This document shows positions 3,131 to 22,832 of a stretch of 24,000 bases of DNA, in pieces (positions within the stretch are counted from its first letter, which is position 1; every line of letters starts with the position of its first letter). The position numbers and the translations under genes were made by a program. The notes beneath the pieces are model-generated. The model had not been told where the DNA came from and made no database searches. It saw only the letters and a list, made by a program, of their open reading frames with translations. Source of the stretch: Bifidobacterium canis (GTDB lineage Bacteria > Actinomycetota > Actinomycetes > Actinomycetales > Bifidobacteriaceae); NCBI RefSeq assembly GCF_009727065.1, contig NZ_WNLP01000010.1, positions 69,770-93,769 of the forward strand. Direction: 5' to 3'.

Positions 3131-3149
3131 CCCCCGCCATGGATCTTGA

Positions 3150-3184
3150 GGGTCGGCCGCCACCTGTTGGCGGCCGACCCTTTT
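3150..3184. terminator. Rho-independent-type hairpin shared by convergent genes
   Basis: Perfect 12 bp stem GGGTCGGCCGCC (3150-3161) / GGCGGCCGACCC (3169-3180) with a 7 nt loop, followed by TTTT (3181-3184). It lies 20 nt after the dnaN-like stop and 9 nt after the corrected stop (3191..3189) of the minus-strand gene. Confidence 0.6.
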
Positions 3185-3188
3185 GTGT

Positions 3189-4893
3189 TCACATTTCGGC
3201 GCTCGCGTTGCCGTCCGGTGTGGACGGTTGCGCCGGTTGCGCCGGTTGCGCGGGTTGTGTGGGTTGGGTTGGTTGTGCGGGCGTGTACTGGGGTGTGTAC
3301 TGCGGCGTGTACTGGGGTGTGGCGGGCGCCGTGTACTGCGGGCCCGTCTCCTGCGTTTGCGTTTGCGCCTCGGCCTGACGGGCCTCCTCCTGCCGGCGTC
3401 GCTCCTCCTGGGCTTTCTGTTTCGCCTCCGCCTCCTTTTTCTTGCGTTCCTCCTCCTGTTTTTCCTCTCCGCCTCCTGTTTGGCACGATTGGCGGCGTCC
3501 TCCTGTTGCGCCTTGGCGCGCAACCCACGCAACGTGTCCTGACGGGACTGCAACGCGTCCAACGTGCCCACCGGCAACCCCTCATACGCTTTGAGTGCCG
3601 ACAACGTATCCTTGCCGGCCAACGGCCAATCCTTGACGGCCCGCGCGGCTTGCGTGCGCATCGCCTCCCATTGGGTTGCGATCTGCTCACTGATGCGCTT
3701 GTCCAGACTGTTGGTGCGGGACCGCAATCGGCTGGTGTGCGCCTCCGTGTCCGCCGGACAGGTGCGTTCGGGACTGCTGCCCGCGTTCAACCGCAACCGT
3801 TTCGCCCGCGCCACGCTCGCATCCCATTGCGCCAACTGCTGCGCGTATTGCGCGCACTGGGCCTCACGGCGCCGCCCATCCCCCGCGGTTTGGTGCGCGT
3901 GCAGCGCGAACACCAGGGCCGCCACCATGAGGATCGCCACGAACACGGCTGCGGCGATGATCAACGGCCGGTATGACCGGGCGCGGCCACCCCCATCATC
4001 ATCGTCCGCGCAAGCGGCCACATCCACCGCATCGGCACCGGCAACCCCCGTATCCCCTATAGGGTCCGTGGATTCCCCATTATCCTCGTCATCGTCCCAG
4101 TCAAGGTCCAGGCTGACGCCACGCGAACCGATCTGCGCGATCCAATCATCATCATCCGCCGCTTTGTCAGGCAAGGGCATGCCCCCGTCCGTGGCCGGCT
4201 CACACGGGTGCTCTGGCATGGCGGAGACTGGTGCGGCGGCCACACCGTCCGTGGTGGTTGTTGGGGGCTCGTCCCATGGGGTGGCGTCGGGACCGGCGAT
4301 GTCATCATCCGCCAACCCATCCCCCGTATGGCGCCCGTATCATCCACAAGTCCACCGTCCGCACCCCAATCCCACTGATCCGCGTCCTGCCCATCCGGCG
4401 TAACTGGCGTGGGGTGTGTATCAGCCCCGGCCTCGTCGGCTTGTTCCCCAGTGGCCTGCACGTCCTGCGGGGGCATGCCGGAATCCTGTTCGTCTTGCAC
4501 TGGGGTGTCCCACAACGCATCCCAATCCTCATCATCCACCGCGGTCCCGCCGTCGCCCATGTCAGGGACCTGCACGGGCCCATCCCGGTCCACCGGCTGT
4601 GCCGGCACCGGCGCCTCACTCGGTTCGGGTTGTCCCGCCGGGGCCATGGCCGGTTCCGGATCGGTCCACAGGCTCTCCCAATCATCCCCATCCGGATTGG
4701 ACGGTTCAACCGGCCCGGTGGCATGGCCATCGCCGCCCGGTGCTCCCATGGATGCGGCCTCGGGTGCGGTATGCCCCTCGCCCGCATTGCCCGCCGGGCG
4801 CACCTCACCTTTTGGCATGACGGGTGCGGCCGGTGTGGGTTCACTGGACACCGGGGGTGTGGCCGCGGACTCGAACTTCGGTTTGAATGGCAT
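3189..4893 (-). CDS. Acidic Trp-rich / single-TM / coiled-coil / Q-P-T-Y repeat protein, function unknown; two apparent one-base frame breaks (pseudogene or sequence error)
   Basis: ATG at 4893, with AGGGG 7 nt upstream. Three frame segments: 4893..~4323 (start of track ORF 4057..4893); ~4322..~3461 (track ORF 2990..4315); ~3461..3189 (no start codon, so absent from the track). Hand translation of the third segment: KQEEERKKKEAEAKQKAQEERRRQEEARQAEAQTQTQETGPQYTAPATPQYTPQYTPQYTPAQPTQPTQPAQPAQPAQPSTPDGNASAEM*. The breaks coincide with C5 (4321-4325) and T5 (3459-3463). The corrected stop sits just before the 3150-3180 hairpin. The uncorrected frames instead give Arg-rich or Pro-rich junk, and one reads through the hairpin into dnaN antisense. 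TM segment: YRPLIIAAAVFVAILMVAALVFAL. Confidence 0.55.
3226..3342. repeat. In-frame coding tandem repeats (9 bp x6 degenerate, then 12 bp units)
   Basis: GGTTGCGCC-type 9-mers at 3226, 3235, 3244, 3253, 3262 and 3271 encode P-A/T-Q triplets on the minus strand. GTGTACTG(G/C)GG(T/C) 12-mers at 3283, 3295 and 3307, plus a fourth at 3331 after a 12 bp spacer, encode PQYT units. Confidence 0.8.
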
Positions 4894-8347: not shown

Positions 8348-9589
8348 TCAGGTGTTCAGGAACAGTGCGCGCCCCATGTCCGACAGCGAGTAGCGGATGG
8401 GTTTGGAACCATGCGTTTGCAGCAATCCGGCATCCGTCAGCGCGTCGAGCGCGTTCACGGTCTTGCGTTCGCCTATGTCCAACGCCTCCCGAAGGAGCTT
8501 GCGGGTCACGGGCACGCGCATCCCGTCGAACAGCTCCTCCTGGATCAGGAAGAACAGGATGCCCGCTTGCAGTCCGGGCATCCCCTCTTGTTGGCGGTAT
8601 GACGTCAACGCGGTTTCCGCTGCCGACAACAGGGCTTGTTTCTCCGTCAATTGCGCGATGATGGCCTCCTGCGCTTCGGACACAAACCGGACCATGCGTT
8701 GGCAGAACATGGTCACGTCCGAGCAGTTCAACGGATGCTGGGCGTCATCGAATGCCTTGTAATACTGTGTCTTGTGGTCGGCGATGATGGTGCTGACGCT
8801 GAGCGCCGTCGGTGCGGATAGGTGCTTGCTTAGTTGCAGTGCGAACAGGAACCGTCCCGTCCTGCCGTTGCCGTCGTAGAACGGGTGGATGTGCTCGAAG
8901 GCATAATGGCACATGGCGGCCCTGAGCAATGGCGGGATGTCCCGGTCTCGCATCAAGGCCAGCCATTGCGTCAACTGCACTTGGATGGTGGATTCGGGCC
9001 AGGCCCCATCATGCAGTTTGCGTCCGGTGCTCTCATCCCAGACCGCGATGGTGTCCTTGCGGAACAGTTGCCCGTCGGGGGTGTCCTTGTCCTCCAGTTC
9101 CCCGTCCATGACCTGATCGTATATGCGGCGGATGCCCTCAAGGGTGGAAGGCAGTTCCAACCGTTCGGGACCGGGGTCGGACAGGCCGAGGAACAGCTTG
9201 GCGAATTCACTCCAACGTGTATGCCCGCCATTGGTGCTGGCGGCCTGCAACGCCTCGCTGATCTCCTTGCGTGTGGTATGCACACCTTCGATGGTGTTCG
9301 TGCTTTGCACTTCGGTGCCGATGAGGTCCATGAGGTATGCGTGGCACGCGATGGGCGGCAGGCTGCGCCACAGCGACTCCACCTGATTTTCCAAGTCGCG
9401 TACCTTATCCATATCGCGGCCGAGTTGCGCGGACAATATAGCGAACATTTCGTATCCGTCCAGCACAAGCCCTGAACGGTATGTGGACCAGCCGTTGATC
9501 CGTGTATCGTATTCCTGTTGCGCGGCTTGTTTTGGGGGAATGGTCGCGGAGCCCATGGCAACGGTTTGCCGGATGGTCTTGTACCCCAT
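8348..9589 (-). CDS. Fic family protein (class II, N-terminal inhibitory helix; probable AMPylase-type enzyme)
   Basis: Fic motif HPFYDGNGRTGR is encoded at 8887..8852. An inhibitory (S/T)xxxE(G/N) motif is present as TNTIEG in the N-terminal part. The preferred start is ATG 9589, 7 nt after GAGGAG (9602..9597); the track start at 9604 overlaps that RBS. Confidence 0.85.
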   Translation of the reverse strand: MGYKTIRQTVAMGSATIPPKQAAQQEYDTRINGWSTYRSGLVLDGYEMFAILSAQLGRDMDKVRDLENQVESLWRSLPPIACHAYLMDLIGTEVQSTNTIEGVHTTRKEISEALQAASTNGGHTRWSEFAKLFLGLSDPGPERLELPSTLEGIRRIYDQVMDGELEDKDTPDGQLFRKDTIAVWDESTGRKLHDGAWPESTIQVQLTQWLALMRDRDIPPLLRAAMCHYAFEHIHPFYDGNGRTGRFLFALQLSKHLSAPTALSVSTIIADHKTQYYKAFDDAQHPLNCSDVTMFCQRMVRFVSEAQEAIIAQLTEKQALLSAAETALTSYRQQEGMPGLQAGILFFLIQEELFDGMRVPVTRKLLREALDIGERKTVNALDALTDAGLLQTHGSKPIRYSLSDMGRALFLNT

Positions 9590-9634
9590 GCAACAACTCC
9601 TCATAACGTGAAAACGTGCATATACGGATGAACA

Positions 9635-9949: not shown

Positions 9950-10702
9950 TCAGACCGTGCCGACGCCCATCGCGGCGAACGCGTCGCCCATGGTGTCCGC
10001 GCCACCAGCGTCGACCGTCGGGGCGGGCATGTTGAAGCCCTTGAGCGGGTCACGGTCCTCCATCGTGAACAGCGGGGTGCCGTCCCCCGTCTTCACCACG
10101 GCGTTCACCACCGCCTTGATGCCCATGTTGCCATTGACCACATACGGGGAGAACCAGATGTTGGCACGCACCCAGCAACCCGCGTACAGCTGCTGCATCG
10201 TCAACGGGCGTCCGGTGTTGAAATCCACCAGCAGGCTGCGTTCCGCACCCGTCTCCGGATCCTGCGCATGCGCCAGATCCTTCGACGTGGTCAACCGGAT
10301 GAAATAGCGGCCGGCGAACTCCGGGTACACATCCTTGCGCAGTTCGCCATTGTGCTCACCACGGGTGAACCGGTCCGTGTCACCGTCCTTCAACGGCAGC
10401 TGTAGGGTCTTGACGAACGCGGGATTGTTCGGATCCTTGCCGGCGAACGGCACGAACTTCGCCTTCGTCTTCGGGTCATACCCGCACTCCTCGGTGCAGC
10501 CCTGCTTGATGGCGGCCATGACGGCCTGCTGGATCGCACGGTAATCCGCGGACGTTTCCACGGTCCTGTCCACACCATCCACGGTTTCCGTCCCCGGCTT
10601 CTTATCGATCAGCAGCGTGAGCTCGTACTTGTCGTTCATGCTGGGTTTGAACAGGTGGACGAACGTGGCGATGGCCGGTTCGGGAAGAATCAGATCAGAC
10701 AT
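9950..10702 (-). CDS. Phage T7 gp2.5-like single-stranded DNA-binding protein (DUF2815 family)
   Basis: ATG at 10702 has AAGGA ~6 nt upstream; the track start at 10819 was rejected. The sequence follows the DUF2815 pattern: ATFVHLFKPS..KYELTLLIDK, LPLKDGDTDR...YFIRLTTSKD, and LYAGCWVRANIWFSPYVVNGNMGIKAVVNAVVKTGDGTPL. Confidence 0.8.
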   Translation of the reverse strand: MSDLILPEPAIATFVHLFKPSMNDKYELTLLIDKKPGTETVDGVDRTVETSADYRAIQQAVMAAIKQGCTEECGYDPKTKAKFVPFAGKDPNNPAFVKTLQLPLKDGDTDRFTRGEHNGELRKDVYPEFAGRYFIRLTTSKDLAHAQDPETGAERSLLVDFNTGRPLTMQQLYAGCWVRANIWFSPYVVNGNMGIKAVVNAVVKTGDGTPLFTMEDRDPLKGFNMPAPTVDAGGADTMGDAFAAMGVGTV

Positions 10703-10767
10703 GGCATGTTCCTTACTGTGTGCCGTACCCAACACCCAGCCCACTGCCGGGGTGGAGGCAACCCGTA

Positions 10768-11165
10768 CTATGCGTCCCGACCGGGCACACGGACCGTTTC
10801 CGGCATGAACTGCTCGCACATCGTCACCCGCCGGCCCTGCACGAACGCCGACTCCAACGTGCGCCCGTCGAAAATGGCGACATACCCCTCCGCGTACGGG
10901 ATCCTGTCACCGGGGCAGAACGCGCCGATGCTGCGCGCCAACGACACCGCTCCCGCCGCATCCCCCCGGGACGCCAACAGGTCAATCCGGTTCTTCGCCT
11001 CCCATCCGGCCGTCTCCCACGCCGGCGCGCCGGATACACGCCGGACGCGGGTTGGCTGGAGGGGGTGGGCGGCATGGGTGGGCGGCCCACATCCCTCATG
11101 GGGTTCGCATCGAACTGTCCACCCGCCCCATTGGGCGCCCCTTTCGGTTTACGCATGACCGGCAT
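10768..11165 (-). CDS. Hypothetical protein, apparently frame-broken
   Basis: The start cluster ATG 11171/11165/11156 follows GAAAGGG (11180..11174). The N-terminal frame reads MPVMRKPKGAPNGAGGQFDANPMRDVGRPPMPPTPSSQPASGVYPA and then turns into Arg-rich junk. The protein-like continuation, PAWETAGWEAKNRIDLLASRGDAAGAVSLARSIGAFCPGDRIPYAEGYVAIFDGRTLESAFVQGRRVTMCEQFMPETVRVPGRDA*, is in the adjacent frame (track ORF 10768..10977, which has no upstream start). The switch lies within the GC palindrome CCGGCGCGCCGG (11022-11033). Confidence 0.4.
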
Positions 11166-11217: not shown

Positions 11218-11910
11218 CTATGCGCCGACACCCACCCCATCATCGGGGCCATGCGCCATATCCGCCAAACCATCCGGGATCATCGCCGCCCGTTCGCCGC
11301 GCGGCCAATACGACTCACGCGCCCGCACCAACAACCAAGTCGACAGGCGGCTGGGTACCCGGTCGCTTTTGCGCCTGTTGTGCTTGGCACACAACCACAC
11401 CAGGTTGCGCCGGCTGGTGGCGCCCCCACGGCTCCACGGGTAATGATGGTCCATCTGCTCACCCATGCGCGGACAACGGATCAGACCGCACATGCGGTGC
11501 TCGCACTGGTTGCCGGTGCATTGTGTGATGAACTCCCGGTCCGCGTCCGAGAACAGGCGGCGTGGATCCCTGTCGAACGGGTTGTCCGGTTTGCGCATGG
11601 GCCAACACACCATTATGGCCACCAGTGCAACCACCAGTGCGGCCATCAGGGCCGTCCACAGCCAACCGGCCGGGACATGCGGCATACGCCAAACGGGCCA
11701 GTGCCACCCCGACAACGGGTTGAGGCTGATGTCGGCCGCAAACTCCGGACTGTCCGTTTCCGCCAACAACCGGTCATGCACACGGATGCACACACCGCCC
11801 ACATACCCCATGGTCCCCATGCCGCCGGAACCGGCCACGGCCCACAGAACATGGCGCGCCCACCGGTGCGCGCCCATAAGCCTGCGCGCCAACCGGATAG
11901 GATGCCACAT
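11218..11910 (-). CDS. Membrane-anchored HNH endonuclease
   Basis: ATG at 11910. HNH core: CEHRMCG...MDHHYPWSRGGATSRRNLVWLCAKHNRRKSD. It is preceded by a strongly hydrophobic helix, GWLWTALMAALVVALVAIMVCW, and a weaker one, HVLWAVAGSGGMGTMGYVGGVCI. Confidence 0.8.
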   Translation of the reverse strand: MWHPIRLARRLMGAHRWARHVLWAVAGSGGMGTMGYVGGVCIRVHDRLLAETDSPEFAADISLNPLSGWHWPVWRMPHVPAGWLWTALMAALVVALVAIMVCWPMRKPDNPFDRDPRRLFSDADREFITQCTGNQCEHRMCGLIRCPRMGEQMDHHYPWSRGGATSRRNLVWLCAKHNRRKSDRVPSRLSTWLLVRARESYWPRGERAAMIPDGLADMAHGPDDGVGVGA

Positions 11911-12124: not shown

Positions 12125-15100
12125 ATGAGCGCTTACACCACTTTGGCCATGGAAACCCTCCCCCTGCTGCGATGGGGCGACGTGGCGGGCAGTCTGGAGA
12201 ACCGCACCGATGACGTCATCGACCAGATCACCGGCCTGTTCGGCTCCATCCCCGTAAGCGTCGAAGGGGTGATGCTGAGCTTGGGCAACGGATTGTGGAC
12301 CGCGGGCGCGAAACTCCTGGGCATGTCCAACGGCAGCGAACAAACCATCGCGGACGCGATGGGACCGGTAAGCAACAGGGTCGTCAAAACCATATACGAC
12401 ACGTTGACGGGCACGATGATGATCCCCGCGCTGATCGTCGCCGCCACCATCTGCACCACCATCTTCATGGTATTCAAAGGCCAAGGCGCCCGCGTCCTCA
12501 TGCAACGCTTCACCGCCCTGATCGTAGGGTTCGCGTTCGTCATCGGCATCGGCGCGCAATGCAGCCAACACCCCGACATCCCCGCCACCGGCACACCATG
12601 GTGGACATACCAGTTCGCCGACCAGCTCGTCGGCAAAACCGGCAATCAGCTCACCGGAGCGTTGGACGCGAGCATGAAATCCACCGGCGCGTTCCTCGCG
12701 TCCACCTCCACCACCAACAAACTCTCCTGCCGGCGCTACCTGGCGCGGTTGGGCGCGGAGGCATCCATGGGCCAGGATGATGTGATCCTGCGCAGCATGA
12801 ACACGATGTGGGAGGAAACGGGGTTGCGCATGTGGGCGCGTGCCCAATACGGCGCCGGGGAGAACGGCACGGAGGTGTTCTGCCGTGTGCTGGAGTACCG
12901 GGCGGGCGCCAACCCGCTGGACCAGGCGGACCGGACGAACGCGGCCGCCATGGCCACCCCACCCGGCCAAGGCGACAATGTGGAACAACGGCTCCGGGCC
13001 CTCAACGGGTCCAACTCGCCGGTGAAGGCCAGCGGGTATGCGATGGCGTTCAACCCGGACCTGCTGATCATCGACGAGGAGGGGCCCACCGGGTCGGACA
13101 GTGACATCAAACCCGCCGCGTCGGCGAAAATGCTCGACCGGATGGTCACCATGTGGGACGTGTGCACCTGGAGGGACGGTGAGGGCGACAACGGGTACGT
13201 GTCCCGTGGCGGCTGGCAATGGGTCGACGCCGTCACAGGCCCCAACCGAGGCCTTGGCAACAACAACAAACTGTCGAACTATTGCCGGGTGGCGATCAGT
13301 GGCGAGGGCACGTTGGACGGCGGCAACACCAAGGATTGGCGCGTATGGGTGGTCGAGGACAGCACCAAAGGCGAAGAACTGCAACACCAGTTGAAGGACA
13401 CGGCACTGGATGCCGCACGGGCTGCGCTGTCGGGCGCGGGGTTCTCCACCTCCGAACAACAGGAGATCATGGCCACGATCCAAGCGGGCAAACCAATGAG
13501 CGCGATCATGTCCATCGTCACCAATTTCAGCCTGCTCACCAACCCGTGGAAAATGATCGACGGCGCCAAAGGGGTGCGTCAAGCGTACGAGGAGTACCAC
13601 AGGCTGCTTGGAGAAATCGCGCAGACCGTCAAGGACGGGTCGGGTGATGAGCAGGTGCAGGCCAACCGCACCCGCATCGGCAATCTGAACAACCCCAATG
13701 ACGGTGCGTTGCGTGCGGTGGTCAAGAAGTTCGATCTGTCGAACTCGAACACCGCATGGCAGTGGGCGGCCCGCACGCACACGGACGCCGGCCAGTTGGA
13801 GAACACCATCAAGGCCATCGCCACCGTCAACCAACAGCACGGCAGCGCGCAATGGTCCGATGTGGGCGGCGGGTTCATCTTCGCCCTGAGCGGTCTGGTG
13901 AACATGCTCATCTGGGGCGTGGGCTTCGGCCTGCTTCGCCTGTTGGCGGTCGCGTTGGCGTGCCTGTGCGCCACCGGGTTGTGGTTCGCGTTGATCGTGT
14001 GGGCGGTAAGCCCCGACCGGGGGCGCAAAACCCTGTCGAAGACGGTGACCAGCATGCTGGGCATGATCGCACCCCCACCGTGTTGGGCTTGTACATGGCG
14101 GTCGCGTGCATCCTGATGAACACGATCATGATGGCGTTGGGCATCGTCGACCGCAACGGCAACACGGCGGCGACGGTCATGGTGATGGGTGTGTGCAGCC
14201 TGGTGCTGCCGTTGGCGAGCGTGTTTGGGTTGCGGTGGTTGTGCATCCGGGTGCTGCATGTGGGCGACCCGTTGAGTTTCGGCGCGCTTGGCGTCATCGG
14301 GGCCACCGTGGGCCAGGGGTGCGCAAGGCGGGCCGTATGGCGATGGCCGCCGGTGGCGCCCTGGCCGCCGGCGCCACCGGCGGTGCGGTCGCGATGGCCG
14401 CGATGAACGGCGCCCGGGCCGGGTCCGTGTCGGATGCGTTGCAGCACGGCTACCGGCAAGGCCAGCATGGACAGCATGGCCAGCACGGTGCAGGCAAGGG
14501 CACCGGGAGCGGCCGGCATGCGGCCCAATCGAACCAACAGTCGGAAGCGGACCGGGCGGTCGGCTCCCCCAATGGACCCGACGGGAATGCTTCCGGTGTG
14601 GTGGACAATGCGTTCGAACGCCAATTGGAACGGGAGCAGGGTGATCATCTGGACAGCATCAAGAACAACCTGATGGTCGAACACCCCGATTGGGACGAAG
14701 AGCGGATCGACCGGGAGGCGCGTGACCGGTTGACGGCGGACTCGGGCAACATGACGCAGCTTGCCGCCAACAAAACCGCCCGGAACATCGTCACCCGTAA
14801 AATGGAGCACGAGGAACTGGTCAAGGTGCGTGCCGAACACCCCCAGGCAAGCGAGGAGGAAGTGGCCGCCCTGGTCAAACAAGGCATGGCCGGCCGTCAA
14901 ACGGAACGCGACAGGCAGATCAGTGAGGTGAAGCAACGGTTGCTGGCCGGACATCGGCAACGTGAACAGGTGCGTGTGCAGGCGGAACATGAACGTGAGT
15001 TGATGCGAACGGCGACGGGCCGGTTGCAATTGGCCCGTGAACTGCACACGGACGGGGATGGTGGCGTGCACCGTACGCGGGCGGCCATGGCGTTCGCCCG

Positions 15101-15569
15101 CGGTGAGGCCCACCGTTTCACCGAACAGCATCCCGTCCTGTCCCGTGCGGCCGGTGTCGCGGGTGTGGGCGCGTTGATGTTCACCCCATTGGCCACACCC
15201 GTCGCATTGGCCGTCGCCGGCCGGGGTATGGCCAAGGGCGCGCAGCACGCAGGCCAGGCCATCCAGAACACGGAAATGCGGGTGCGGGACGCAGCCGGGC
15301 GCGCCAAAGGGTTCATGTCCCTGTTGGCATCCCCAACAGGCCCCACGCCGGTTGCGGCGCCACACATGCTGCCGGTGGAACAGCAGGCGCGCATGCGCAT
15401 GGGCGCTCCCGCCACCCCCATGGGTCAACAAACCGGACCGGGTGATGTGCGACCGGTGCCGGTGGCGCAAACGGCACCGCGCCCGCCCATCAAACCCGTG
15501 GCGTCCCCGCCTGCGCCACCCCAACCCGTGTCCGTGCCCGTGGGCACACCAACCGGGCACGGCGCATAG
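12125..15569 (+). CDS. Very large polytopic membrane protein with a C-terminal coiled-coil/Pro-rich region (VirB6/TrbL/TcpH-like role is tentative); read as one gene with two one-base frame breaks, or alternatively three overlapping ORFs
   Basis: Segments: 12125..14116 (track, 663 aa); a middle segment in the frame of track ORF 13756..14406, protein-like only from ~14077 (possible own start GTG 14080); a last segment in the frame of track ORF 14106..15569, protein-like from ~14319 (possible own starts GTG 14319 or ATG 14337). Restoring one C in C5 (14072-14076) gives ...SMLGMIAPPTVLGLYMAVACILMNTIMMALGIV.... Restoring one G in a G4 run (14316-14319 or 14297-14300) gives ...GATVGQGVRKAGRMAMAAGGALAAG.... 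The uncorrected tails are Trp/Arg/Pro-rich junk. Multiple TM helices flank a ~450 aa loop. A GQHGQHGQHG repeat lies at ~14458-14490. Confidence 0.6.
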
Positions 15570-15609: not shown

Positions 15610-16413
15610 ATGGACGTGTTGGACAACACCAGCGCACTATGGTGCACGAACCCCGTGCCATTGCACGACGGCATGGAGGACCTGTACCACACCTGGTTCG
15701 CCGGGCATACCGGGCAACCAGACGGGCAGACGGTCAGCGTCCAACCATGGTCGCCCATGCCGTGCCCCACACCATGGGCGAACACCATGGACACGGTCAC
15801 CAACATGTATTTGGGGTTGCCGATGATCTGGCTGCCCCAAGAGGTGTGGGCGCGCTACGGCACGGAAACCAACGCCGCATGGCACATGCGCATGATGCTC
15901 ACCCTCACCATCCTCAACCAGGTGAACGTCACGGACCATGGGCAACTCACCTACCGGTTGATGGACACGATCCCCACCAACCCGGACCGTTTGGCGGCCA
16001 TGGCCCTGTCCGCCGCCACTGGCGAGGGCAGTGAGGACGCCGACCAGTGCCGCCAAACAGCGGCCGCATGGGTGGACGTGGCATGGCCGGACGGCTACCC
16101 GTTGGCGATGTTGTGCGCCTTGGCGCGTGACCTGGTGCCCGTATGCGAGTACGGCAGCGCCGTCCTGTCCGCCTACACGGCGGTCGCGTACGCGACGGTT
16201 GGTGCGGACGGGCAACGGTACGCGGTGCGTATGCTGCGCACGCTCCGGGACGTGTACCCGCAGGTGTTCACCCCGGACGCGTTGACGCCGCAAGCGGTGA
16301 CCGGCTGGTACCAGACCCACCGGCAGCAGGCGGTGGACATGATGAATGTGTTGGCGGACCTCAACCTCGAACACCGTGACATGGCGACCACCGTCGCCAA
16401 CCTGTTGGCCTAG
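15610..16413 (+). CDS. Hypothetical protein (267 aa, Trp-rich)
   Basis: ATG at 15610 lies ~9 nt after AAAGGA (15595-15600). The frame is uninterrupted and protein-like with high third-position G/C. I recognised no motif. Confidence 0.6.
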   Translation: MDVLDNTSALWCTNPVPLHDGMEDLYHTWFAGHTGQPDGQTVSVQPWSPMPCPTPWANTMDTVTNMYLGLPMIWLPQEVWARYGTETNAAWHMRMMLTLTILNQVNVTDHGQLTYRLMDTIPTNPDRLAAMALSAATGEGSEDADQCRQTAAAWVDVAWPDGYPLAMLCALARDLVPVCEYGSAVLSAYTAVAYATVGADGQRYAVRMLRTLRDVYPQVFTPDALTPQAVTGWYQTHRQQAVDMMNVLADLNLEHRDMATTVANLLA

Positions 16414-16553
16414 GCGTTTGGTTGGGGTGTGTCCCCCATCAGCTCCTTGAGCACATTGCCCACGTCGGCTTGCGCATGGTTCGTGCCCACATCAATGGTC
16501 ACGGGGATGTCCTTGATGGTGAACGGTATTGGCGCGAACGTGGCGCGCACCAT
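16410..16553 (-). CDS. Possible small protein (47 aa)
   Basis: Only the C-terminal part of track ORF 16410..16877 looks protein-like: MVRATFAPIPFTIKDIPVTIDVGTNHAQADVGNVLKELMGDTPQPNA*. ATG at 16553 with a weak RBS. Third-position G/C bias is present. Its stop overlaps the stop of the convergent 15610..16413 gene. Confidence 0.3.
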   Translation of the reverse strand: MVRATFAPIPFTIKDIPVTIDVGTNHAQADVGNVLKELMGDTPQPNA

Positions 16554-16749
16554 CGGCGAGGTGTTTCTTCTCCCGTATGGCCGGCGTACAGGCGTACACC
16601 GGCGGTTATGCGCTGGGGTGGCCAACGGTGGCGGCCCCGGCGTGTGTTCCCAGTGTACTGGGTGTGTGCCAGGTGTGGCGCACAGGGGTGTGGCGTGTGG
16701 GCGCATAGACATGCGGCGTCCCATACAGCGTGCGTGAAAGGATACGCAG

Positions 16750-18312
16750 ATGACAAGCAGGAAATGGCAATTGGCGGCCGGGCTTACCGGACTGGCGCTG
16801 TTCGCGTCGATCGGTGTGGGTGTGGCGCCCGCCATGGCGGCGGACATCCCCGCCGGCACCGACCAGTTGACGATCACCGCCGGTCAGGGGTCCACGTTGG
16901 CGGGCAAGAACCTGACCGTGTACCGCATCGCCGAATACCCGGATGTGGTGATGAACGGCAACGATCTGGCGAGCCTGTCCGCCCGTTCGGTGAGCAACGC
17001 GACCGAACAGTGGGTGAAAGCCGCATTGGACGCGCAGCATGTGACCGTCAAAGCCGGTGACAACGCGGCAAGCACCCTGCTGCGTGTCACTGATGACACG
17101 AACACGGTGCGCCAACTGGCGGCCCGGTTGGCCACGAGCGTGGACGGCAAGGATTTGCAGAAGAAGACCGTGCCGGCATCCACCACGGAAAGCGTGACAA
17201 TGCAGTTGCCGGCAGGATATTACCTGGTCACGGACGCGGATGGTGTGCCGATCCTCATCTCCTCGACGGTGCGGGGCAAGAACAGTTTGAACAAGAAGCC
17301 GATCGGACGGACCACCATCAAGTCCAACGGCATCAAACCGGAGAAGAAGGTGAAGAACCTCGCCGGCCAATGGGTCGATGAGGCGTCCGCCACGAACTCG
17401 GAGACCCGCGAGTACCGTGTGCGGTTCACCGTGCCGAACGCCGCCGCCGTGCAGACCGTCACCATCGGGGACGTGATGGAGAACATGGAGTATGTGGCGG
17501 GCACGTTCCACGCGACCGTGGATGGTGCGGATGTGACCGGCCAGTTCAACACGCCAACGAAAACCAGCAACGGGTTCACCGCCACATCCAAGAACACGTT
17601 CGTCGCCGCCCATGAGGGCAAGCAGGTGACCGTCACCTACAGCACCCAGATGACCACGTTGGACAAGTCCAAGCCGGCCGTCAACAAGGTGGGTGTCACC
17701 CCCGGTTGGAAGGACGGTGTGTTCCTGGAGGGCCAGCCGAAACCCACGGTGCCGACGGTCACGACGACGCTCAACACGTACGATTTCGGGTTGCGCAAGG
17801 TGTCCGCAGGCAACACCAGCAAGACGGTCGCCGGCGCCGGGTTCAAGATCCAAAACCAGTCCGCGTTGCATCAGAACAAGTGGATGAACTGGAACGCGGG
17901 CACGAAGCAATGGTCGTACGTGGATGCGGAAAACGCGGCCACGGAGTTGAGGACCGGCGCGAACGGCGTGATCGATTTCCGCAGCCTGGGTGCGGGCACG
18001 TACCTGGTCAAGGAGACCACCGTGCCGGATGGGTATTTCACGCATATCAAACCGTCGTTCAGGGTGACGATCACGGAGGACGGCAAGGTCACTGCCGTGG
18101 GTGTCGATCAGGCGGGCCTGGTCACCGGTGTGAACAATGCGGATGGCAAGGCTGGCACGCCCATGGTGACGGTGCAGAACGTGGATAACGTGTCGCAGTT
18201 GCCGAAGACGGGTTCGTCCACGTTGGCGGTCCTGTTGTTCGCCGGCATGGCGATCGTGTTGGCCGCGGGCGCGGCGGGCATCTCCGCATACATGCTCAAG
18301 AGCCGTGCCTGA
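16750..18312 (+). CDS. LPXTG-anchored fimbrial (pilin-type) subunit
   Basis: ATG at 16750 lies 7 nt after GAAAGGA (16736-16742). Signal peptide ...GVGVAPAMA/AD. An E-box-like YLVKETTVPDGY is present. The sorting signal is LPKTG (18199-18213), then a hydrophobic stretch and the tail KSRA. Repeated beta-rich segments fit CnaB/SpaA-type pilins. Confidence 0.85.
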   Translation: MTSRKWQLAAGLTGLALFASIGVGVAPAMAADIPAGTDQLTITAGQGSTLAGKNLTVYRIAEYPDVVMNGNDLASLSARSVSNATEQWVKAALDAQHVTVKAGDNAASTLLRVTDDTNTVRQLAARLATSVDGKDLQKKTVPASTTESVTMQLPAGYYLVTDADGVPILISSTVRGKNSLNKKPIGRTTIKSNGIKPEKKVKNLAGQWVDEASATNSETREYRVRFTVPNAAAVQTVTIGDVMENMEYVAGTFHATVDGADVTGQFNTPTKTSNGFTATSKNTFVAAHEGKQVTVTYSTQMTTLDKSKPAVNKVGVTPGWKDGVFLEGQPKPTVPTVTTTLNTYDFGLRKVSAGNTSKTVAGAGFKIQNQSALHQNKWMNWNAGTKQWSYVDAENAATELRTGANGVIDFRSLGAGTYLVKETTVPDGYFTHIKPSFRVTITEDGKVTAVGVDQAGLVTGVNNADGKAGTPMVTVQNVDNVSQLPKTGSSTLAVLLFAGMAIVLAAGAAGISAYMLKSRA

Positions 18313-18343
18313 CCGGCCGGCAACCTGTTGGAAAGGACTGATT

Positions 18344-20109
18344 GTGAACACCAGTACTCCTTCAAGGCTGCCCCGTTGTGTGGCCGCCATGCTCGCCTTC
18401 ATCATCGCCGTTCCTGTGGCGTTGATGGGTGTGGGTGTGGCGGCCGCCACCCCATTCGTCCCCATGGGGCATACATCGGAGGGGTTGCCTATCTATGATC
18501 TGCAGGAGACGTTGGCTCGTCCTGAGTATTCCAATGTGCAGATCGATACCACCAATGTCACCAAAGAGAACGTCATCAATGTGAATGGGTTCGAGGTGGA
18601 TACCTCGGGAACATACACTGGGTGGATCCGTTGGCGGCCAACGAAGAAAAACGCATCGCTACGCGTCACCAATATCGGCACTTACCGCACTTCTGATGGG
18701 AAAACACACCGGTTGCAGGGTGATTTCATGGTTAACGACTACCAGAAGGCCGTTTTCAGCATCGATGGCCCTGCGCAGGGTCGAATGCGCATGGCACCTG
18801 GTTCGGCGCGGGTGGCGATTATAAATACCCCGGCACTGTGGCCAAGTACATGGACTATACGTTGAGGCTTCTGGATGAAAACGGCAATCCCATGCCGGAA
18901 GACATCAAGGGATTGGCGGGTTTTCAGGATTTGGACGGCGAACCGAATAACGGGCCGAAGGAAGGGGTGCAGTTACTCGGCGGGTTCGACGGAGCTTACA
19001 TACGCCGTGACACCCATTTGGCACAGTATGGGTTCAATGGTTGGAATGGTGGCATGGACCCCAATAACAACCTGTTCGATGATCATGCCCAGAAGCATTA
19101 TCTTGGTGTGACTTTCGCTGGCAATACCTTGAAACTGAGGTATGACACCGTTGGTGGCCGCCAAGCGTCCGTCCAGCCGATCAAAGCGTTGGTGGCATAT
19201 GAGCTGAAGTACGATCCGAACGCCCCGGACACGAACAACGGTGTGCCGGCGATGAATGGGGATGGCATACCCACGCAAGGCGTGAAGAACGGTTGCCTTG
19301 CCTATTACGTGGGTGGTGACACCATCAATCTGGCGACCGGGGCCAAGGATGGCGATTGTTGGGATTCGTCCCAGTTGACCCGTCCCGGGTACACGTTCAA
19401 GGGCTGGTCCCCGGACCGGAACGCCTCTGCGCCGCAGGCGCAGATCACGATGCCGCATGAGAACACGACCGTGTATGCGATCTGGGTGAAGAATGTGCGG
19501 TTCACGTATGATGCGGACAAGCCCGCTGAATACACGGGCAGCATGCCGGGTGTGCCGGATGCGCGTGAGTTCTCCCCCGGTGCAACCGTGCCCAACACCT
19601 CCCCATGGAAGACGGGGGCCACCAACATCATCCGTGGATGGCGGTTCGATGGGTGGAGGACCGGCCGGGATGACACGTCCGCGGTGTATGGGTTCGACAC
19701 GACCCCCATCACCCAGGACACCACCGTGTACGGTTCGTGGACGCCCCTGACCATCAACCTGCATTACGACGCGAACGGTGGCGAGGGTTCGCACCCGTCG
19801 CAGAACACGCGGTGGGATACGACGGTCACCATCCCGGACGATGTGAACGGTTCGTTCCACCGCGACGGGTTCACGTTGACCGGGTGGAACACGCAGGCGG
19901 ACGGCAAGGGCACCGCGTACCAGCCGGGCAAGGGTGTGCCGATGGTCGACCATGACGTCACCTTGTACGCCCAGTGGGCGCCGCTGGCCACGACGATGCC
20001 GGAGACCGGTTCGGCCACGCTCGCGTGGCTGATTGGCGGCGGCGCATTGGTGCTGTTGATCGCGGTCGGTGCCGGTGTGTGGGTGTGGCGTATCCGCCGC
20101 AAGGCATAA
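18344..20109 (+). CDS. Cell-wall-sorted adhesin with three Listeria-Bacteroides (Flg_new) repeats and an MPETG sorting motif; one apparent frame break
   Basis: GTG at 18344 lies 6 nt after GAAAGGA (18331-18337). A signal/TM segment (AAMLAFIIAVPVALMGVGVAAA) is in the frame of track ORF 18305..18865. The rest is in track ORF 18838..20109. Adding one G at GGG (18778-18780) gives ...SIDGPAQGSNAHGTWFGAGGDYKYPGTVAKYMDY.... Repeats: GYTFKGWSPD..TTVYAIW, GWRFDGWRTG..TTVYGSW and GFTLTGWNTQADGKGTAY..VTLYAQW. The C-terminus is MPETG (19996-20010), a TM segment, then RIRRKA. Confidence 0.65.
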
Positions 20110-20143
20110 CCCCTGACCGGCAACACCTCTGGTGGCCGTGTGT

Positions 20144-20178
20144 GTGCGCCCCATGCCCGATTGCGGTGTGGGGCGCAC
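20144..20178 (+). terminator. Hairpin between the adhesin and sortase genes (weak terminator/attenuator candidate)
   Basis: 10 bp stem GTGCGCCCCA (20144-20153) / TGGGGCGCAC (20169-20178) with a 15 nt loop. There is no strong T-tract. Confidence 0.35.
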
Positions 20179-20215
20179 CCTTGTATGGGATGGGTGTGAC
20201 GTATAGGGCGGAGTC

Positions 20216-21178
20216 ATGGACAAGCAGGATGAATGGGAATGGATCGTCACCGGGCATGATCCGGCCCGCGGGCGGTGTACACGGGCCGGTGAACGGCGGG
20301 CCCGTGCGCACCGGCGCCGCCTGGTGCGGGTGTTGACCGTGGTGATGGTGGTGTGCGCCCTGTTGGGTGTGTTCGTGTTCGCGTGGATCATGGTGGAACG
20401 CCATGAGGCCGGTGTGGAGCAGGCGCGGGCGGCCGCCATGGCCGTGCAGACCGACCCGGCACGGGACCTGTCCGGTCAAGGGGACAAGTACAACCGGGCG
20501 TTGGCGTCGAAACCGCAGGTGATCGGGGAAACCCTGTCGCAAGATGGGGTGTCGGGTGATTTCTCGTTCGCCTCCGACAAGGCGTATTGGGGTGCGGTGG
20601 ATTATGGCGACGGGGTCATGGGCCAGTTGCTGATCCCCCGCATCCATGTGGACATGCCCATCAGGCATGGGGCTGACGCGTCCGCGTTGGACCGTGGCGT
20701 GGGCCATTTGCATGGCACCAGCCTGCCCGTGGGCGGCCAAGGCACGCATGCGGTGTTGACGGGGCATACCGGGGAGGCGGACAAGGCGTTGTTCAGCCGG
20801 TTGGACGAACTGGAACACGGGGATGTGTTCACGATCCGCACCGGCACCCGCACCCTGTCCTACCGTGTGGCGGACATCCGCACCGTACTGCCCCAGGACA
20901 CGAAAGCATTGCGGATAGAACCGGGACGGGATCTGGTGACGTTGGTGACGTGCACGCCGATTTTCATCAACTCGCACCGGTTGCTCGTCACCGGTGAACG
21001 CATCCCGGACGGTGAGATGGCCGCCATGCGCGCGCACGCCCCTACTGTGGCCAGCGGTGTGGACCCGGCGCGGACGGCCCGGTTGGTGGCTTTGGGTGTG
21101 GGTGTGGCGGGCTTGCCGGTGGCCGTATGCTTGTCGGCGCACCGGCATACGGGCCGGGTGGCGCACCGGAGGCGCTGA
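20216..21178 (+). CDS. srtC: Class C (pilus-assembly) sortase
   Basis: ATG at 20216. N-terminal TM VLTVVMVVCALLGVFVFAWIMV. Catalytic His region HAVLTGH. The TLVTCTP motif has Cys encoded at 20951-20953. A conserved Arg region and a C-terminal TM (LVALGVGVAGLPVAVCL) are typical of class C. Confidence 0.85.
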   Translation: MDKQDEWEWIVTGHDPARGRCTRAGERRARAHRRRLVRVLTVVMVVCALLGVFVFAWIMVERHEAGVEQARAAAMAVQTDPARDLSGQGDKYNRALASKPQVIGETLSQDGVSGDFSFASDKAYWGAVDYGDGVMGQLLIPRIHVDMPIRHGADASALDRGVGHLHGTSLPVGGQGTHAVLTGHTGEADKALFSRLDELEHGDVFTIRTGTRTLSYRVADIRTVLPQDTKALRIEPGRDLVTLVTCTPIFINSHRLLVTGERIPDGEMAAMRAHAPTVASGVDPARTARLVALGVGVAGLPVAVCLSAHRHTGRVAHRRR

Positions 21179-21290
21179 CCCCGCAGCCAAAAGGACGCAT
21201 GGGACCGGCAAGCATCGTTCACCATTGTTTTGGCATGGAAGCTCGGGGTTTTAACCCCGAGAGGAAACGCCATGTGCCTCCGCGCCTTCT

Positions 21291-21320
21291 TTAACAATAT
21301 TACGCGCGTAGTGATATAAT
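21291..21320 (+). promoter_or_regulatory. Promoter candidate inside the IS left end, implying a leaderless tnpB mRNA
   Basis: -35 TTAACA (21291-21296), an 18 nt spacer, then -10 TATAAT (21315-21320). The first ATG (21319) overlaps the -10. The second ATG (21328) lies 8 nt after it, where transcription would start. Confidence 0.4.
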
Positions 21321-22770
21321 GTATCGCATGTCTCAAAAGGTCGCGATCGAACGAGTGCAGGTACGGGGCGCCATCCCATACCTCGGCACAAACACGACCG
21401 AAGACGGGCAACAAGTACCGTTGTATTCCTCCAACCCTGATATCGTGATGCGCTGGCTGTGCGACGGGTGGCGCTGCCGGTACAACCAACTGCGTTCCCG
21501 CCGGCAAAAATGGGACAAGACCAGACAAGCGCTTATCCCGTTGGGTGACGAGCCGGACATGCGCGCCGACAAGCAAGCGAGAGCAGAATGCTCATGGCTC
21601 GCCGCGATTCCCGCGATGATCCTGCAATCCCCGAACCGTATCGAGAACACCGACTGGTGGAGCGCGAACAAACGCAGGAAGACCCTGCGCAAGCAACACC
21701 GGAACCCGGGCATGATGCCACGGTTCAAAAGCCGCCGTGACGATCTGTATTTCGTATGCTGGCACAACAGGGGCATGAACGCGAACTGGCGCCAGTTCAA
21801 CAAGCACCACGGGGAAATCATCATCACCGGGCAGAACCCCAAGCCGGTCAACCTCGCAGGGCAACCTTGCCGGTACCGTATCCACATCCGTGTGCGCGTC
21901 AGCCAACCGATCCGCGACTACACGAGCATCGGCGTGAACTGGACGAGGAAAACCGTCGTCTTCATCAACGAACCATTGCCGATCGCACGGGAACGCACGA
22001 ACCGCATGGTCGGGCTCGACCGTGGTGTGGCGCACACGCTCGCCACGTCCGACGGTGGGTTCATCGACCTGCCGAAAGCCCGTTTGGCCCGAATCGACCG
22101 GGAGATTCGCCGCCGTCAGAAGGCGCAGGCGCGCAGAGTGAAACTCTCCGGCGAACCCGTGAACGAATACAGACGGCATGCGAGCCGCGCATACCGGCGC
22201 ACGCAAGCGCAAATCGCCGGCTTGTATGCGAAAGCGCATCGCATCATCGACGACTGGCAGCACAAGACCACGACCGCGCTCGTACGGGCGTACGACCTCA
22301 TCGCCATCGAAAACCTCAACCTGCAAGGCATGACCCGACGCGCGAACATCAAACCCGACCCGAATCATGCCGGACGGTTCCTGCCGAACGGTCAAGCGGC
22401 GAAACGCGGACTGAACCACAGTCTACGCGCGGCCGCGCTTGGCGGCATCGCAAGCAAACTCGAATACAAGACGCAGGCCGCCGCCCATAGTCGGCTGATC
22501 CTCGTCAACCCGGCGTACACATCCCGAACATGCAGCAAGTGCGGGCATTGCGCGAAGGAAAACCGTGAGAGCCAAGCGGTGTTCCAGTGCCAACAATGCC
22601 ACACACGCATGAACGCCGACGTGAACGCCGCCATCAACATCCTCAACCGGGGTGTTGACCATGTTCTCGGCTTGGACGAAGCCGAGCGTGCCATAACGAC
22701 ACAAGACGCCCGAACCGTGCAACACGGCGAAAGCGCGATCGTGGCACGCGGAACCTCAACCCGGCCTTAA
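21319..22770 (+). CDS. tnpB: TnpB (IS605 OrfB-type RNA-guided nuclease)
   Basis: RuvC motifs MVGLDRGV, LIAIENLN and MNADVNAAINI, plus a zinc ribbon CSKCGH...CQQCH. The true start may be ATG 21328 (see the promoter feature). Confidence 0.9.
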   Translation: MYRMSQKVAIERVQVRGAIPYLGTNTTEDGQQVPLYSSNPDIVMRWLCDGWRCRYNQLRSRRQKWDKTRQALIPLGDEPDMRADKQARAECSWLAAIPAMILQSPNRIENTDWWSANKRRKTLRKQHRNPGMMPRFKSRRDDLYFVCWHNRGMNANWRQFNKHHGEIIITGQNPKPVNLAGQPCRYRIHIRVRVSQPIRDYTSIGVNWTRKTVVFINEPLPIARERTNRMVGLDRGVAHTLATSDGGFIDLPKARLARIDREIRRRQKAQARRVKLSGEPVNEYRRHASRAYRRTQAQIAGLYAKAHRIIDDWQHKTTTALVRAYDLIAIENLNLQGMTRRANIKPDPNHAGRFLPNGQAAKRGLNHSLRAAALGGIASKLEYKTQAAAHSRLILVNPAYTSRTCSKCGHCAKENRESQAVFQCQQCHTRMNADVNAAINILNRGVDHVLGLDEAERAITTQDARTVQHGESAIVARGTSTRP

Positions 22771-22832
22771 ACCGGATTGGAATCTCGGGGTTTCAACCCC
22801 GAGAGGACGTCAAAGGGAAAAGGAGGGTTGCC

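Follow-up and report, generated by a model that had tools for sequence, protein, structure and literature searches.

A predicted sortase-assembled adhesive pilus module among mobile-element genes of Bifidobacterium canis

Introduction

The bee locus of Enterococcus faecalis encodes a sortase-assembled pilus and is carried on a mobile element. Similar loci are known from other Gram-positive bacteria. The Lactococcus lactis plasmid pSH74 encodes pili (spaCB-spaA-srtC1-srtC2) that cause clumping and raise conjugation 16-22-fold, and element-borne sortase pili are also present in L. lactis TIL448 (PMC5152845). In Propionibacterium freudenreichii JS18, the island with the pilus operon shares TraA, TraG and VirB4 with other strain-specific clusters, and the pili bind mucus (PMC5644110). 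Clostridioides difficile integrative and conjugative elements (ICEs) carry a sortase together with its substrates (PMC6814731). According to reviews, Gram-positive conjugation systems encode no pili and use wall-anchored adhesins (PMC12857230, PMC8092201). Among bifidobacteria, the Bifidobacterium breve megaplasmid pMP7017 was shown experimentally to be conjugative (PMC4908950). Here, we describe a pilin gene, an adhesin gene and a sortase gene in a stretch of 24,000 nucleotides from Bifidobacterium canis (assembly GCF_009727065.1, contig NZ_WNLP01000010.1, positions 69,770 to 93,769). This whole stretch is called the window, and the three genes are called the trio.

An initial annotation of the window had claimed three co-directional genes encoding an LPKTG pilin, an MPETG adhesin with Listeria-Bacteroides repeats and a class C sortase. 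The family matches agree with all three identities, the adhesin gene being split in the window. We consider the chances even that the trio is an exchangeable module for a sortase-assembled adhesive pilus within the surface-adhesion repertoire of the elements that carry it, and that it is accessory to transfer, being neither a core transfer part nor a DNA conduit. The three genes are located in the window as follows.

16750-18312, plus strand: shaft (major) pilin of 520 aa with a signal peptide, three Ig-like domains, the E-box YLVKETTVPDGY and LPKTG
18347-20109, plus strand: Flg_new (Listeria-Bacteroides / InlB B-repeat) adhesin of about 587 aa when intact, with a signal peptide, a hypervariable head, repeats and MPETG
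20216-21178, plus strand: class C (pilus-assembly) sortase of 320 aa with the TLVTC catalytic motif and N- and C-terminal membrane helices

Sequence and Predicted Structure of the Trio

The C-terminus of the pilin consists of LPKTG, a hydrophobic stretch and a basic tail. The protein matched Pfam SpaA PF17802 (E value 7.5e-13) and TIGR04226, the isopeptide-forming D2 domain, with 39.4 bits (cut-off 30). Its homologues are almost wholly restricted to Bifidobacterium. Residue conservation was taken from alignments of 14 to 55 homologues. D241, N312, K350 and E422 were invariant in every alignment, N477 was invariant or nearly so, and K191 and K199 were kept in at least 90% of the sequences (55 homologues). 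K199/N312/D241 is a candidate CnaA triad and K350/N477/E422 a candidate CnaB triad, and isopeptide bonds are predicted for both. By residue conservation, the pilin combines the E-box and the isopeptide residues that characterize sortase-dependent pili.

An AlphaFold2 model of the pilin built from 51 sequences had a mean predicted local distance difference test (pLDDT) score of 80.7. The best PDB fold matches of this model, found with Foldseek, were multi-domain shaft and basal pilins with E values of 1e-24 to 1e-13. The top match was Streptococcus sanguinis PilA/PilB (6e-24), followed in order by Clostridium perfringens CppA, EbpB, EbpC, LrpA, SpaD, RrgB, BcpA and SpaA. The family profile of the pilin aligned with S. 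sanguinis SSA1632 over the full length (E value 6e-47). Structure prediction of 16750-18312 had been proposed in the initial annotation as a check, and it returned a three-domain shaft pilin fold with conserved isopeptide residues and the E-box. As in shaft pilins, a sorting signal is combined with a multi-domain CnaA/CnaB Ig-like fold in the predicted structure.

K191 is located 8 residues before K199, the lysine of the CnaA domain, in the sequence T-I-K-S-N, so that IKSN stands where other pilins have YPKN. K191 is a candidate lysine for the intermolecular linkage. The spacing of K191 and K199 resembles that of the pilin-motif lysine and the first isopeptide lysine in Corynebacterium diphtheriae SpaA.

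The sortase scored 204.7 bits against the NCBIfam model class_C_sortase NF033745 (cut-off 160), compared with about 22-75 bits against the class E, D and F models. It matched Pfam Sortase with an E value of 6e-27, and its best PDB sequence match was the class C sortase 2xwg (E value 1e-47). Membrane helices were predicted at residues 42-60 and 290-308, and two membrane helices are typical of class C sortases. The trio has a dedicated class C sortase, as sortase-dependent pilus clusters do.

The adhesin matched Flg_new with an E value of 5.9e-20 and also matched Flg_new_2. In the window it is present as two open reading frames (ORFs), 18305-18865 and 18838-20109, and its true start is likely the GTG at 18347, behind GGAAAGGA. 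From position 6830 rightward, the rest of the window shows about 97% identity to positions 584,824-606,383 of Contig01 (780 kb) of Bifidobacterium cuniculi LMG 10738. The adhesin gene is split at 18778, where one G is gone from a run of four (GGG in the window versus GGGG in LMG 10738). In LMG 10738 it forms one ORF (L011; L numbers denote the loci compared here), and its homologues have 582-596 aa. The operon is also intact in several metagenome contigs with 95-98% identity. Phase variation at this frameshift was considered and rejected: the run differs only as GGG versus GGGG, and similar losses strike unrelated genes and intergenic DNA.

No family or PDB relative was detectable for the adhesin's N-terminal region (about 330 residues). 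Contigs with flanks of 95-98% identity share only 15-50% identity in the head (window 18600-19330; alignment columns about 151-400). At least four head alleles were found (contigs L027, L029, L030 and L033), with the repeats and the anchor being 96-100% identical. This pattern indicates diversifying selection or cassette-like exchange, as would be expected of a ligand-binding tip. The adhesin is probably the tip subunit.

The sorting signals of the pilins were LP[KQ]TG, and the Flg_new adhesins of close relatives ended in MP[EA]TG. More distant Flg_new adhesins ended in FTPTG, LPFTG or LPSTG. LAxTG signals were found on neighbouring surface proteins, namely PrgB-like AgI/II adhesins and the proteins that we call surf804 and surf909. 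Surface proteins with LAxTG beside the trio are encoded at the following positions.

L011, 17714-20125: surface protein with LAxTG
L009, 11883-14612: surface protein with LAxTG
L020, 4358-9706: surface protein with LAxTG

LAxTG is the signal preferred by actinobacterial housekeeping class E sortases. Because the LP/MPxTG signals of the pilin and the Flg_new adhesin differ from the LAxTG of their neighbours, the motifs suggest two sortase substrate sets. Both the pilin and the Flg_new adhesin would be substrates of the class C sortase of the element, and the LAxTG proteins would be left to the housekeeping sortase of the host.

Occurrence of the Trio

The survey that started from the trio included 80 metagenome loci, fetched from 353 relatives found. 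In B. cuniculi-like loci the context of the trio was as in the window. The B. animalis locus had the order Fic, CHAP, pilin, two adhesins, sortase, WhiB and GmrSD. One metagenomic lineage had CHAP, a 539-aa protein and the trio, then small genes and FHA/PP2C/kinase. Another lineage, 61% identical in the pilin, had a PrgB-like adhesin and the trio, followed directly by TrbL/VirB6, PrgI, a VirB4-like ATPase and an SLT+CHAP hydrolase, and B. vansinderenii and B. callimiconis had this layout too. Linkage to genes of a type IV secretion system (T4SS) was found in some elements (L018/19 and L015/16), in which the trio directly abuts TrbL, PrgI, the VirB4-like ATPase and SLT/CHAP.

A very abundant human-gut class, about 45% identical, accounted for about 70 of the 80 metagenome loci fetched. 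Wherever the contig was long enough, the order in this class was always PrgB-like AgI/II adhesin, pilin, Flg_new adhesin, sortase and CAP protein, often then Fic. The AgI/II adhesin of this class had PrgB 8beg as its best PDB match (E value 1e-40). B. pullorum subsp. gallinarum has a distant trio, with 32% identity in the pilin, flanked by GlgE/pyrophosphatase/GlnR to one side and by metA and the ATP synthase operon to the other, which by gene content we read as a housekeeping context.

Fic was seen to travel with the trio. The Fic proteins of B. cuniculi and B. animalis (L001 7478-8719) are 87% identical, and the B. animalis gene is two genes from the pilin gene. In many human-gut loci (L052, L055, L072, L082, L087, L101, L105 and L106), the CAP gene is followed by that of a Fic protein with 55% identity.

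The Cargo Slot of the Island

We read the window locus as a chromosomal island because the window from 6830 to the right end matches the 780-kb Contig01 of LMG 10738. The genes around the trio are listed below.

1-1943 (runs past the window edge), minus strand: coupling-protein-like ATPase, 775 aa in full, with about 128 C-terminal residues outside the window
2009-3130, plus strand: DnaN-like clamp (Pfam/NCBIfam/PHROG)
2990-4893, minus strand: 515-aa membrane protein, frameshifted in the window and intact in L107
5525-8014, plus strand: primase-helicase with Prim-Pol (D5-type; Pfam/NCBIfam/PHROG)
8348-9604, minus strand: Fic (Pfam/NCBIfam/PHROG)
9950-10819, minus strand: gp2.5-like single-stranded DNA-binding protein (SSB; Pfam/NCBIfam/PHROG)
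11218-11910, minus strand: HNH nuclease (Pfam/NCBIfam/PHROG)
12125-15569, plus strand: giant polytopic membrane protein, 1148 aa when intact, broken at 14070 and 14316
15610-16413, plus strand: orf267 (267 aa), the constant next gene after the giant membrane protein, with the trio inserted directly behind it
21223-22809, plus strand: TnpB-only element of the IS200/IS605 type with tnpB at 21319-22770, starting 45 bp after the sortase stop codon
23334-24000, minus strand: two small membrane proteins, one of 152 aa and one of 123 aa cut by the window edge

Just past the window, LMG 10738 encodes a bitopic 331-aa protein (p331) and surf804, a surface protein of 804 aa with LAATG at its end. The coupling-like ATPase and the giant membrane protein have homologues that mark out a small element family, found in B. 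castoris, Bombiscardovia coagulans, B. animalis and metagenomes. The Bombiscardovia element and two metagenomic elements (L025 and L026) had p331 (opposite strand), two small membrane proteins, the giant protein, orf267, a tiny ORF and HNH, and no trio followed orf267 in these three. A sortase gene near the backbone in L025 was rejected as a relative of the trio: it is unrelated to the window sortase and has no pilin beside it. B. animalis had the same inverted layout as B. cuniculi and other cargo between orf267 and the small membrane proteins. This cargo occupies the following position.

L024, 14475-21038: slot cargo of B. animalis subsp. animalis 2022B, with an acetyltransferase, two AAA_21/AAA_15-type ATPases, an IS607-like resolvase+TnpB and a PBECR4 protein

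These slot genes may be defence cargo. The trio of B. animalis itself lies about 55 kb from the slot on the same contig. Between B. cuniculi and B. animalis, identity was 81% for the pilin, 87% for Fic, 64-70% for the adhesin and 60-66% for the sortase, compared with 45-59% for the backbone. We regard the trio as a mobile cargo-slot module because the slots of sister elements are empty or otherwise filled and because the trio is more conserved than the backbone. In this reading of the comparison, the trio sits in a cargo hotspot and would have moved between elements more recently than the backbones diverged. The constant presence and position in the transfer gene set that mark a core T4SS gene were not seen for the trio.

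The initial annotation had asked whether the pilin, adhesin and sortase genes are consistently linked to the coupling protein, giant membrane protein and Prim-Pol genes of the window. Relatives of the trio do recur on conjugative-type elements, and the trio is not fixed to this particular backbone. Homologous elements without the block, or its presence mostly in non-mobile chromosomal contexts, had been named as evidence against a functional coupling. Sister backbones without the block were found, as were other cargo in the B. animalis slot and the distant trio in a housekeeping context, and these speak in part against such a coupling; other relatives stand beside T4SS genes.

Relation to the Megaplasmid pMP7017

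pMP7017 carries a trio in the same order, with B7017_RS00110 as a SpaA-type pilin, RS00105 as an InlB B-repeat protein and RS00100 as a class C sortase, followed by a CAP protein. Identity to the window proteins is 27% for the pilin, 35% for the adhesin and 46% for the sortase. Four backbone proteins are shared with the island: the coupling-like ATPase (24% over 629 aa), the giant membrane protein (B7017_RS00270, 25-26%), p331 (25%) and surf804 (38%). The surf804 homologue of pMP7017 adjoins the pilin gene. pMP7017 differs from the island in being a free 190-kb plasmid, in having an adhesin of 2080 aa that ends in LPFTG, and in the distance of about 23 kb between its trio and its giant membrane gene.

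Homologues of pMP7017 have been defined by identity and coverage of 70% or more, with the RepB replicase included (PMC10832533). The backbone of the island is 24-38% identical to pMP7017 (four proteins), which places it outside the pMP7017 type. Judged by these identities, the island is a distant relative of pMP7017 and not a member of its type. The claim that the block is element-borne agrees with its mobile-element flanks and with this distant homology to a conjugative plasmid.

The transcriptionally active genes listed by Dineen et al. 2024 include the pMP7017 sortase, under the name 'pilin specific class C sortase', and the CAP protein, called 'PrgA-like'. In their Table S2, the CAP protein has an HHpred match to PrgA 6Z9L with an E value of 9e-45, and their main text is silent on both. 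Our PDB sequence search with the CAP protein was empty.

Backbone Genes and Frameshifts

The window has a GC content of about 64%, and codon-position GC selected one coherent gene set. Neither tRNA genes nor Rfam families were found in the window, and near-identity DNA searches of plasmid and phage collections gave no match to it. The replication genes claimed to the left of the trio were recovered by family matches (DnaN, Prim-Pol primase-helicase, gp2.5-like SSB and HNH). These replication and accessory genes are also present in the B. castoris element, and a subset is present in the Bombiscardovia element.

GKPGGGKS forms the Walker A motif of the coupling-like ATPase, which also has a membrane helix. 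The ATPase had no Pfam or NCBIfam match, its PDB sequence search was also empty, and it was 27% identical to annotated type IV coupling proteins (T4CPs) on Arthrobacter plasmids. In a model of the full-length, 97%-identical homologue P0070, the ATPase domain was closest to TrwB of R388 (E value 3e-9, template modelling score about 0.6), with HerA ranking behind. The Walker A motif, the helix, the 27% identity and the TrwB fold match together describe a TrwB/VirD4-type membrane-anchored ATPase. We name it coupling-protein-like because the fold comparison, and it alone, pointed to TrwB, the family and PDB sequence searches being empty; the T4CP-like label given to this gene at first holds on this basis. 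The breaks of fourteen metagenome contigs fall at residue 451 of the ATPase gene, a hint of a repeated or variable segment there.

The element family (the window, L022, L023 and L109) has a phage-like replication set, including a PD-(D/E)XK nuclease, together with the TrwB-like ATPase. Almost none of its membrane and transfer proteins match curated families. A prophage was rejected as an explanation despite the PHROG matches, given that there are no structural or lysis genes, that the TrwB-like ATPase is present and that there is homology to a conjugative plasmid.

The giant membrane protein is a single 1148-aa ORF in L011, with at least seven predicted hydrophobic helices, and it had no Pfam or NCBIfam family match. 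Homologues were found in B. animalis, Bombiscardovia and metagenomes. It had been called VirB6-like; the polytopic 1148-aa protein is there, and the label rests on topology and synteny, no family having matched. Homologues of orf267 directly follow the giant gene in L023, L024, L025 and L026, and orf267 had no Pfam or NCBIfam match. The two small membrane proteins to the right have 2-3 hydrophobic helices each, with homologues 50-59% identical in L023-L026, and they directly precede the giant membrane protein in the sister elements. Neither they nor p331 had a Pfam or NCBIfam match. They had been described as T4SS-style; they are conserved backbone genes, and no curated T4SS family matched them, the label being plausible by topology and synteny.

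A VirB4-type ATPase and a relaxase were not found in the window or in the reachable contigs that carry the coupling gene, which end early. The sister elements gave faint FtsK_SpoIIIE and AAA_10 signals, all below the cut-off.

The insertion sequence (IS) noted to the right of the trio is the TnpB-only element at 21223-22809. Its tnpB scored 171 bits against NF040570 guided_TnpB (cut-off 100), and its ends carry the near-identical subterminal hairpins CTCGGGGTTTTAACCCCGAG and CTCGGGGTTTCAACCCCGAG. Neither a TnpA gene nor an Rfam RNA match was found for the element. L029 carries it; LMG 10738 and most related metagenome contigs do not. A strong promoter-like site (11/12 matches) lies at 21291-21320, just before tnpB. 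On the other side of the trio, the junction between orf267 and the pilin gene (16413-16750) is variable. In L033 (8530-9768) and L029 it contains an additional opposite-strand gene of about 1.08 kb for a putative lipoprotein (signal ...LLAAC), which the window and LMG 10738 do not have.

Compared with LMG 10738, single nucleotides are lost in short homopolymers at window positions 14070, 14316, 18778, 9662 and 22997. The losses at 14070 and 14316 break the giant membrane gene, and that at 18778 breaks the adhesin gene. A fourth frameshift splits the 515-aa gene (2990-4893), which is intact in the related contig L107. Comparable 1-nt differences from LMG 10738 were also found in non-coding DNA. 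Because 1-nt homopolymer losses also strike intergenic DNA, all frameshifts in the window are probably consensus errors of the assembly (long-read type) and not biology, real decay being the alternative.

Proposed Function and Alternative Explanations

From the gene identities, fold, motifs, synteny and modularity reported above, we infer polymerisation of the pilin, placement of the adhesin at the tip and an adhesive target. The class C sortase would cut the pilin after the Thr of LPKTG. This Thr would be joined to a conserved lysine of the next pilin (candidate K191), which would give a covalent shaft. The Flg_new adhesin, with its own MPETG and hypervariable head, would most probably be loaded first and come to lie at the fibre tip. 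The host housekeeping sortase would then anchor the fibre to the cell wall. The most likely role is sticking between cells or between a cell and a surface, which by the logic of PrgB would give more contact between donor and recipient and might also aid colonisation. Because the fibre would be a solid covalent polymer of Ig-like domains, it is not expected to be a conduit for DNA. We link it to cell-cell contact in transfer because several unrelated backbones have the trio next to T4SS genes or flanked by a PrgB-like and a PrgA-like gene, and because the Lactococcus plasmid pili gave clumping and more conjugation. The absence from sister elements, the cargo slot, the version in a housekeeping context and the hypervariable head are the reasons for considering the pilus accessory, perhaps serving colonisation as much as mating.

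Several observations weigh against an adhesive pilus that assists transfer. The canonical pilin motif (WxxxVxVYPK / YPKN) was not found, there being no YPK in the pilin, and polymerisation is not assured. No pilin domain of the CnaB type was recognisable in the adhesin, which could be wall-anchored alone. Selection on the hypervariable head by host, immune system or phage fits at least as well as binding to a conserved wall polymer of recipients. The trio of the window itself has no PrgB-like or PrgA-like neighbour within the available sequence. The conjugative status of the island would follow from its relatives, neither VirB4 nor a relaxase having been found in the DNA reached. In the window assembly, the adhesin gene is frameshifted and an IS adjoins the operon.

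The strongest competing explanation is pure colonisation cargo, in which the pilus binds a host or dietary ligand (mucin, glycan or matrix) and has no role in transfer. We hold this to be possible though clearly less probable than the accessory adhesive pilus. It agrees with the variable slot and the sister backbones without the block, with the distant B. pullorum trio between GlgE/PPase/GlnR and metA/ATP synthase, with the greater conservation of the trio than of the backbone, and with a hypervariable head typical of receptor-binding domains. The island pilus of P. freudenreichii JS18 binds mucus (PMC5644110), and the sortase and substrates of the C. difficile ICEs were viewed by their authors as colonisation cargo (PMC6814731). 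However, the trio stands repeatedly beside T4SS genes or between PrgB-like and PrgA-like genes in several unrelated backbones, and the plasmid-borne Lactococcus pili raised conjugation.

At the opposite end, the fibre with its hypervariable Flg_new tip could be a dedicated mating-pair organelle, a covalent 'conjugative pilus' that is not a conduit, acting with the PrgB-like and PrgA-like proteins, with head alleles setting the range of recipients. We regard this stronger proposal as unlikely.

It is quite improbable that the pilin and the adhesin form no fibre and are separately wall-anchored monomers, with the sortase only anchoring them through signals that differ from the LAxTG of the host. 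The missing canonical YPKN motif, the non-standard MPETG signal and the absence of a detected pilin-type domain in the adhesin speak for this. However, the sortase is of class C and not of class E or A, the pilin shows the complete three-domain architecture of a shaft and can be aligned from end to end with solved shaft pilins, and at least 90% of 55 homologues keep a lysine about 8 residues ahead of the one in the CnaA domain. That the operon is a decaying remnant, being lost in this strain and without current function, is suggested by the adhesin split at 18778, the IS 45 bp after the sortase gene and three more frameshifts in neighbouring backbone genes, but is just as improbable, since each frameshift is a 1-nt loss in a short homopolymer of the kind also seen in non-coding DNA (a pattern that marks long-read consensus error), neither the pilin gene nor the sortase gene is broken, no gene is interrupted by the IS, and LMG 10738 and several metagenome contigs with 95-98% identity have the whole operon intact.

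With the accessory adhesive pilus as the favoured reading, two consequences can be distinguished. If the fibre helps mating, it would be a second kind of mating-pair device in Gram-positive conjugation and would bear on the spread of elements among gut bifidobacteria. If it is colonisation cargo, it would be a mobile, allele-swapping adhesin of abundant gut commensals. pMP7017 is tractable for the question of a mating role, having the same trio, tagged derivatives and mating assays.

Comparison with Known Systems

The trio resembles SpaA-type pili (C. diphtheriae SpaABC, S. sanguinis PilABC and Lactobacillus rhamnosus SpaCBA/SpaFED) in its class C sortase, its three-domain shaft pilin with E-box and isopeptide residues, its LPXTG signal and its adhesin gene. 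It differs from them in having IKSN instead of YPKN, a Flg_new-repeat MPETG protein instead of a vWFA/CnaB tip pilin, and no separate basal pilin gene. With the pili of pSH74 and JS18 it shares a pilus operon with its own class C sortase on a plasmid or ICE-like island. Unlike the trio, those pili consist of proteins unrelated in sequence, have other tip types, and none has been reported nested among T4SS or PrgA/PrgB-like genes. The likeness to PrgA-PrgB-PrgC of the Enterococcus plasmid pCF10, which act in mating-pair formation and surface exclusion, lies in LPXTG surface proteins beside T4SS genes. However, pCF10 has no sortase and no polymerisable pilin, and the trio of the window has no PrgA- or PrgB-like neighbour in the available DNA.

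The initial annotation had presented the coupling of such a block to a mobile element as undescribed. This part of the claim has to be withdrawn: the pMP7017 trio was already annotated, and precedents exist in Lactococcus and P. freudenreichii. Element-borne sortase pili are already documented, and the locus of the window belongs to this known kind. Compared with the searchable literature, the new points are that this particular trio recurs on bifidobacterial conjugative elements, that it can be nested between a PrgB-like and a PrgA-like gene, and that the Flg_new head is hypervariable.

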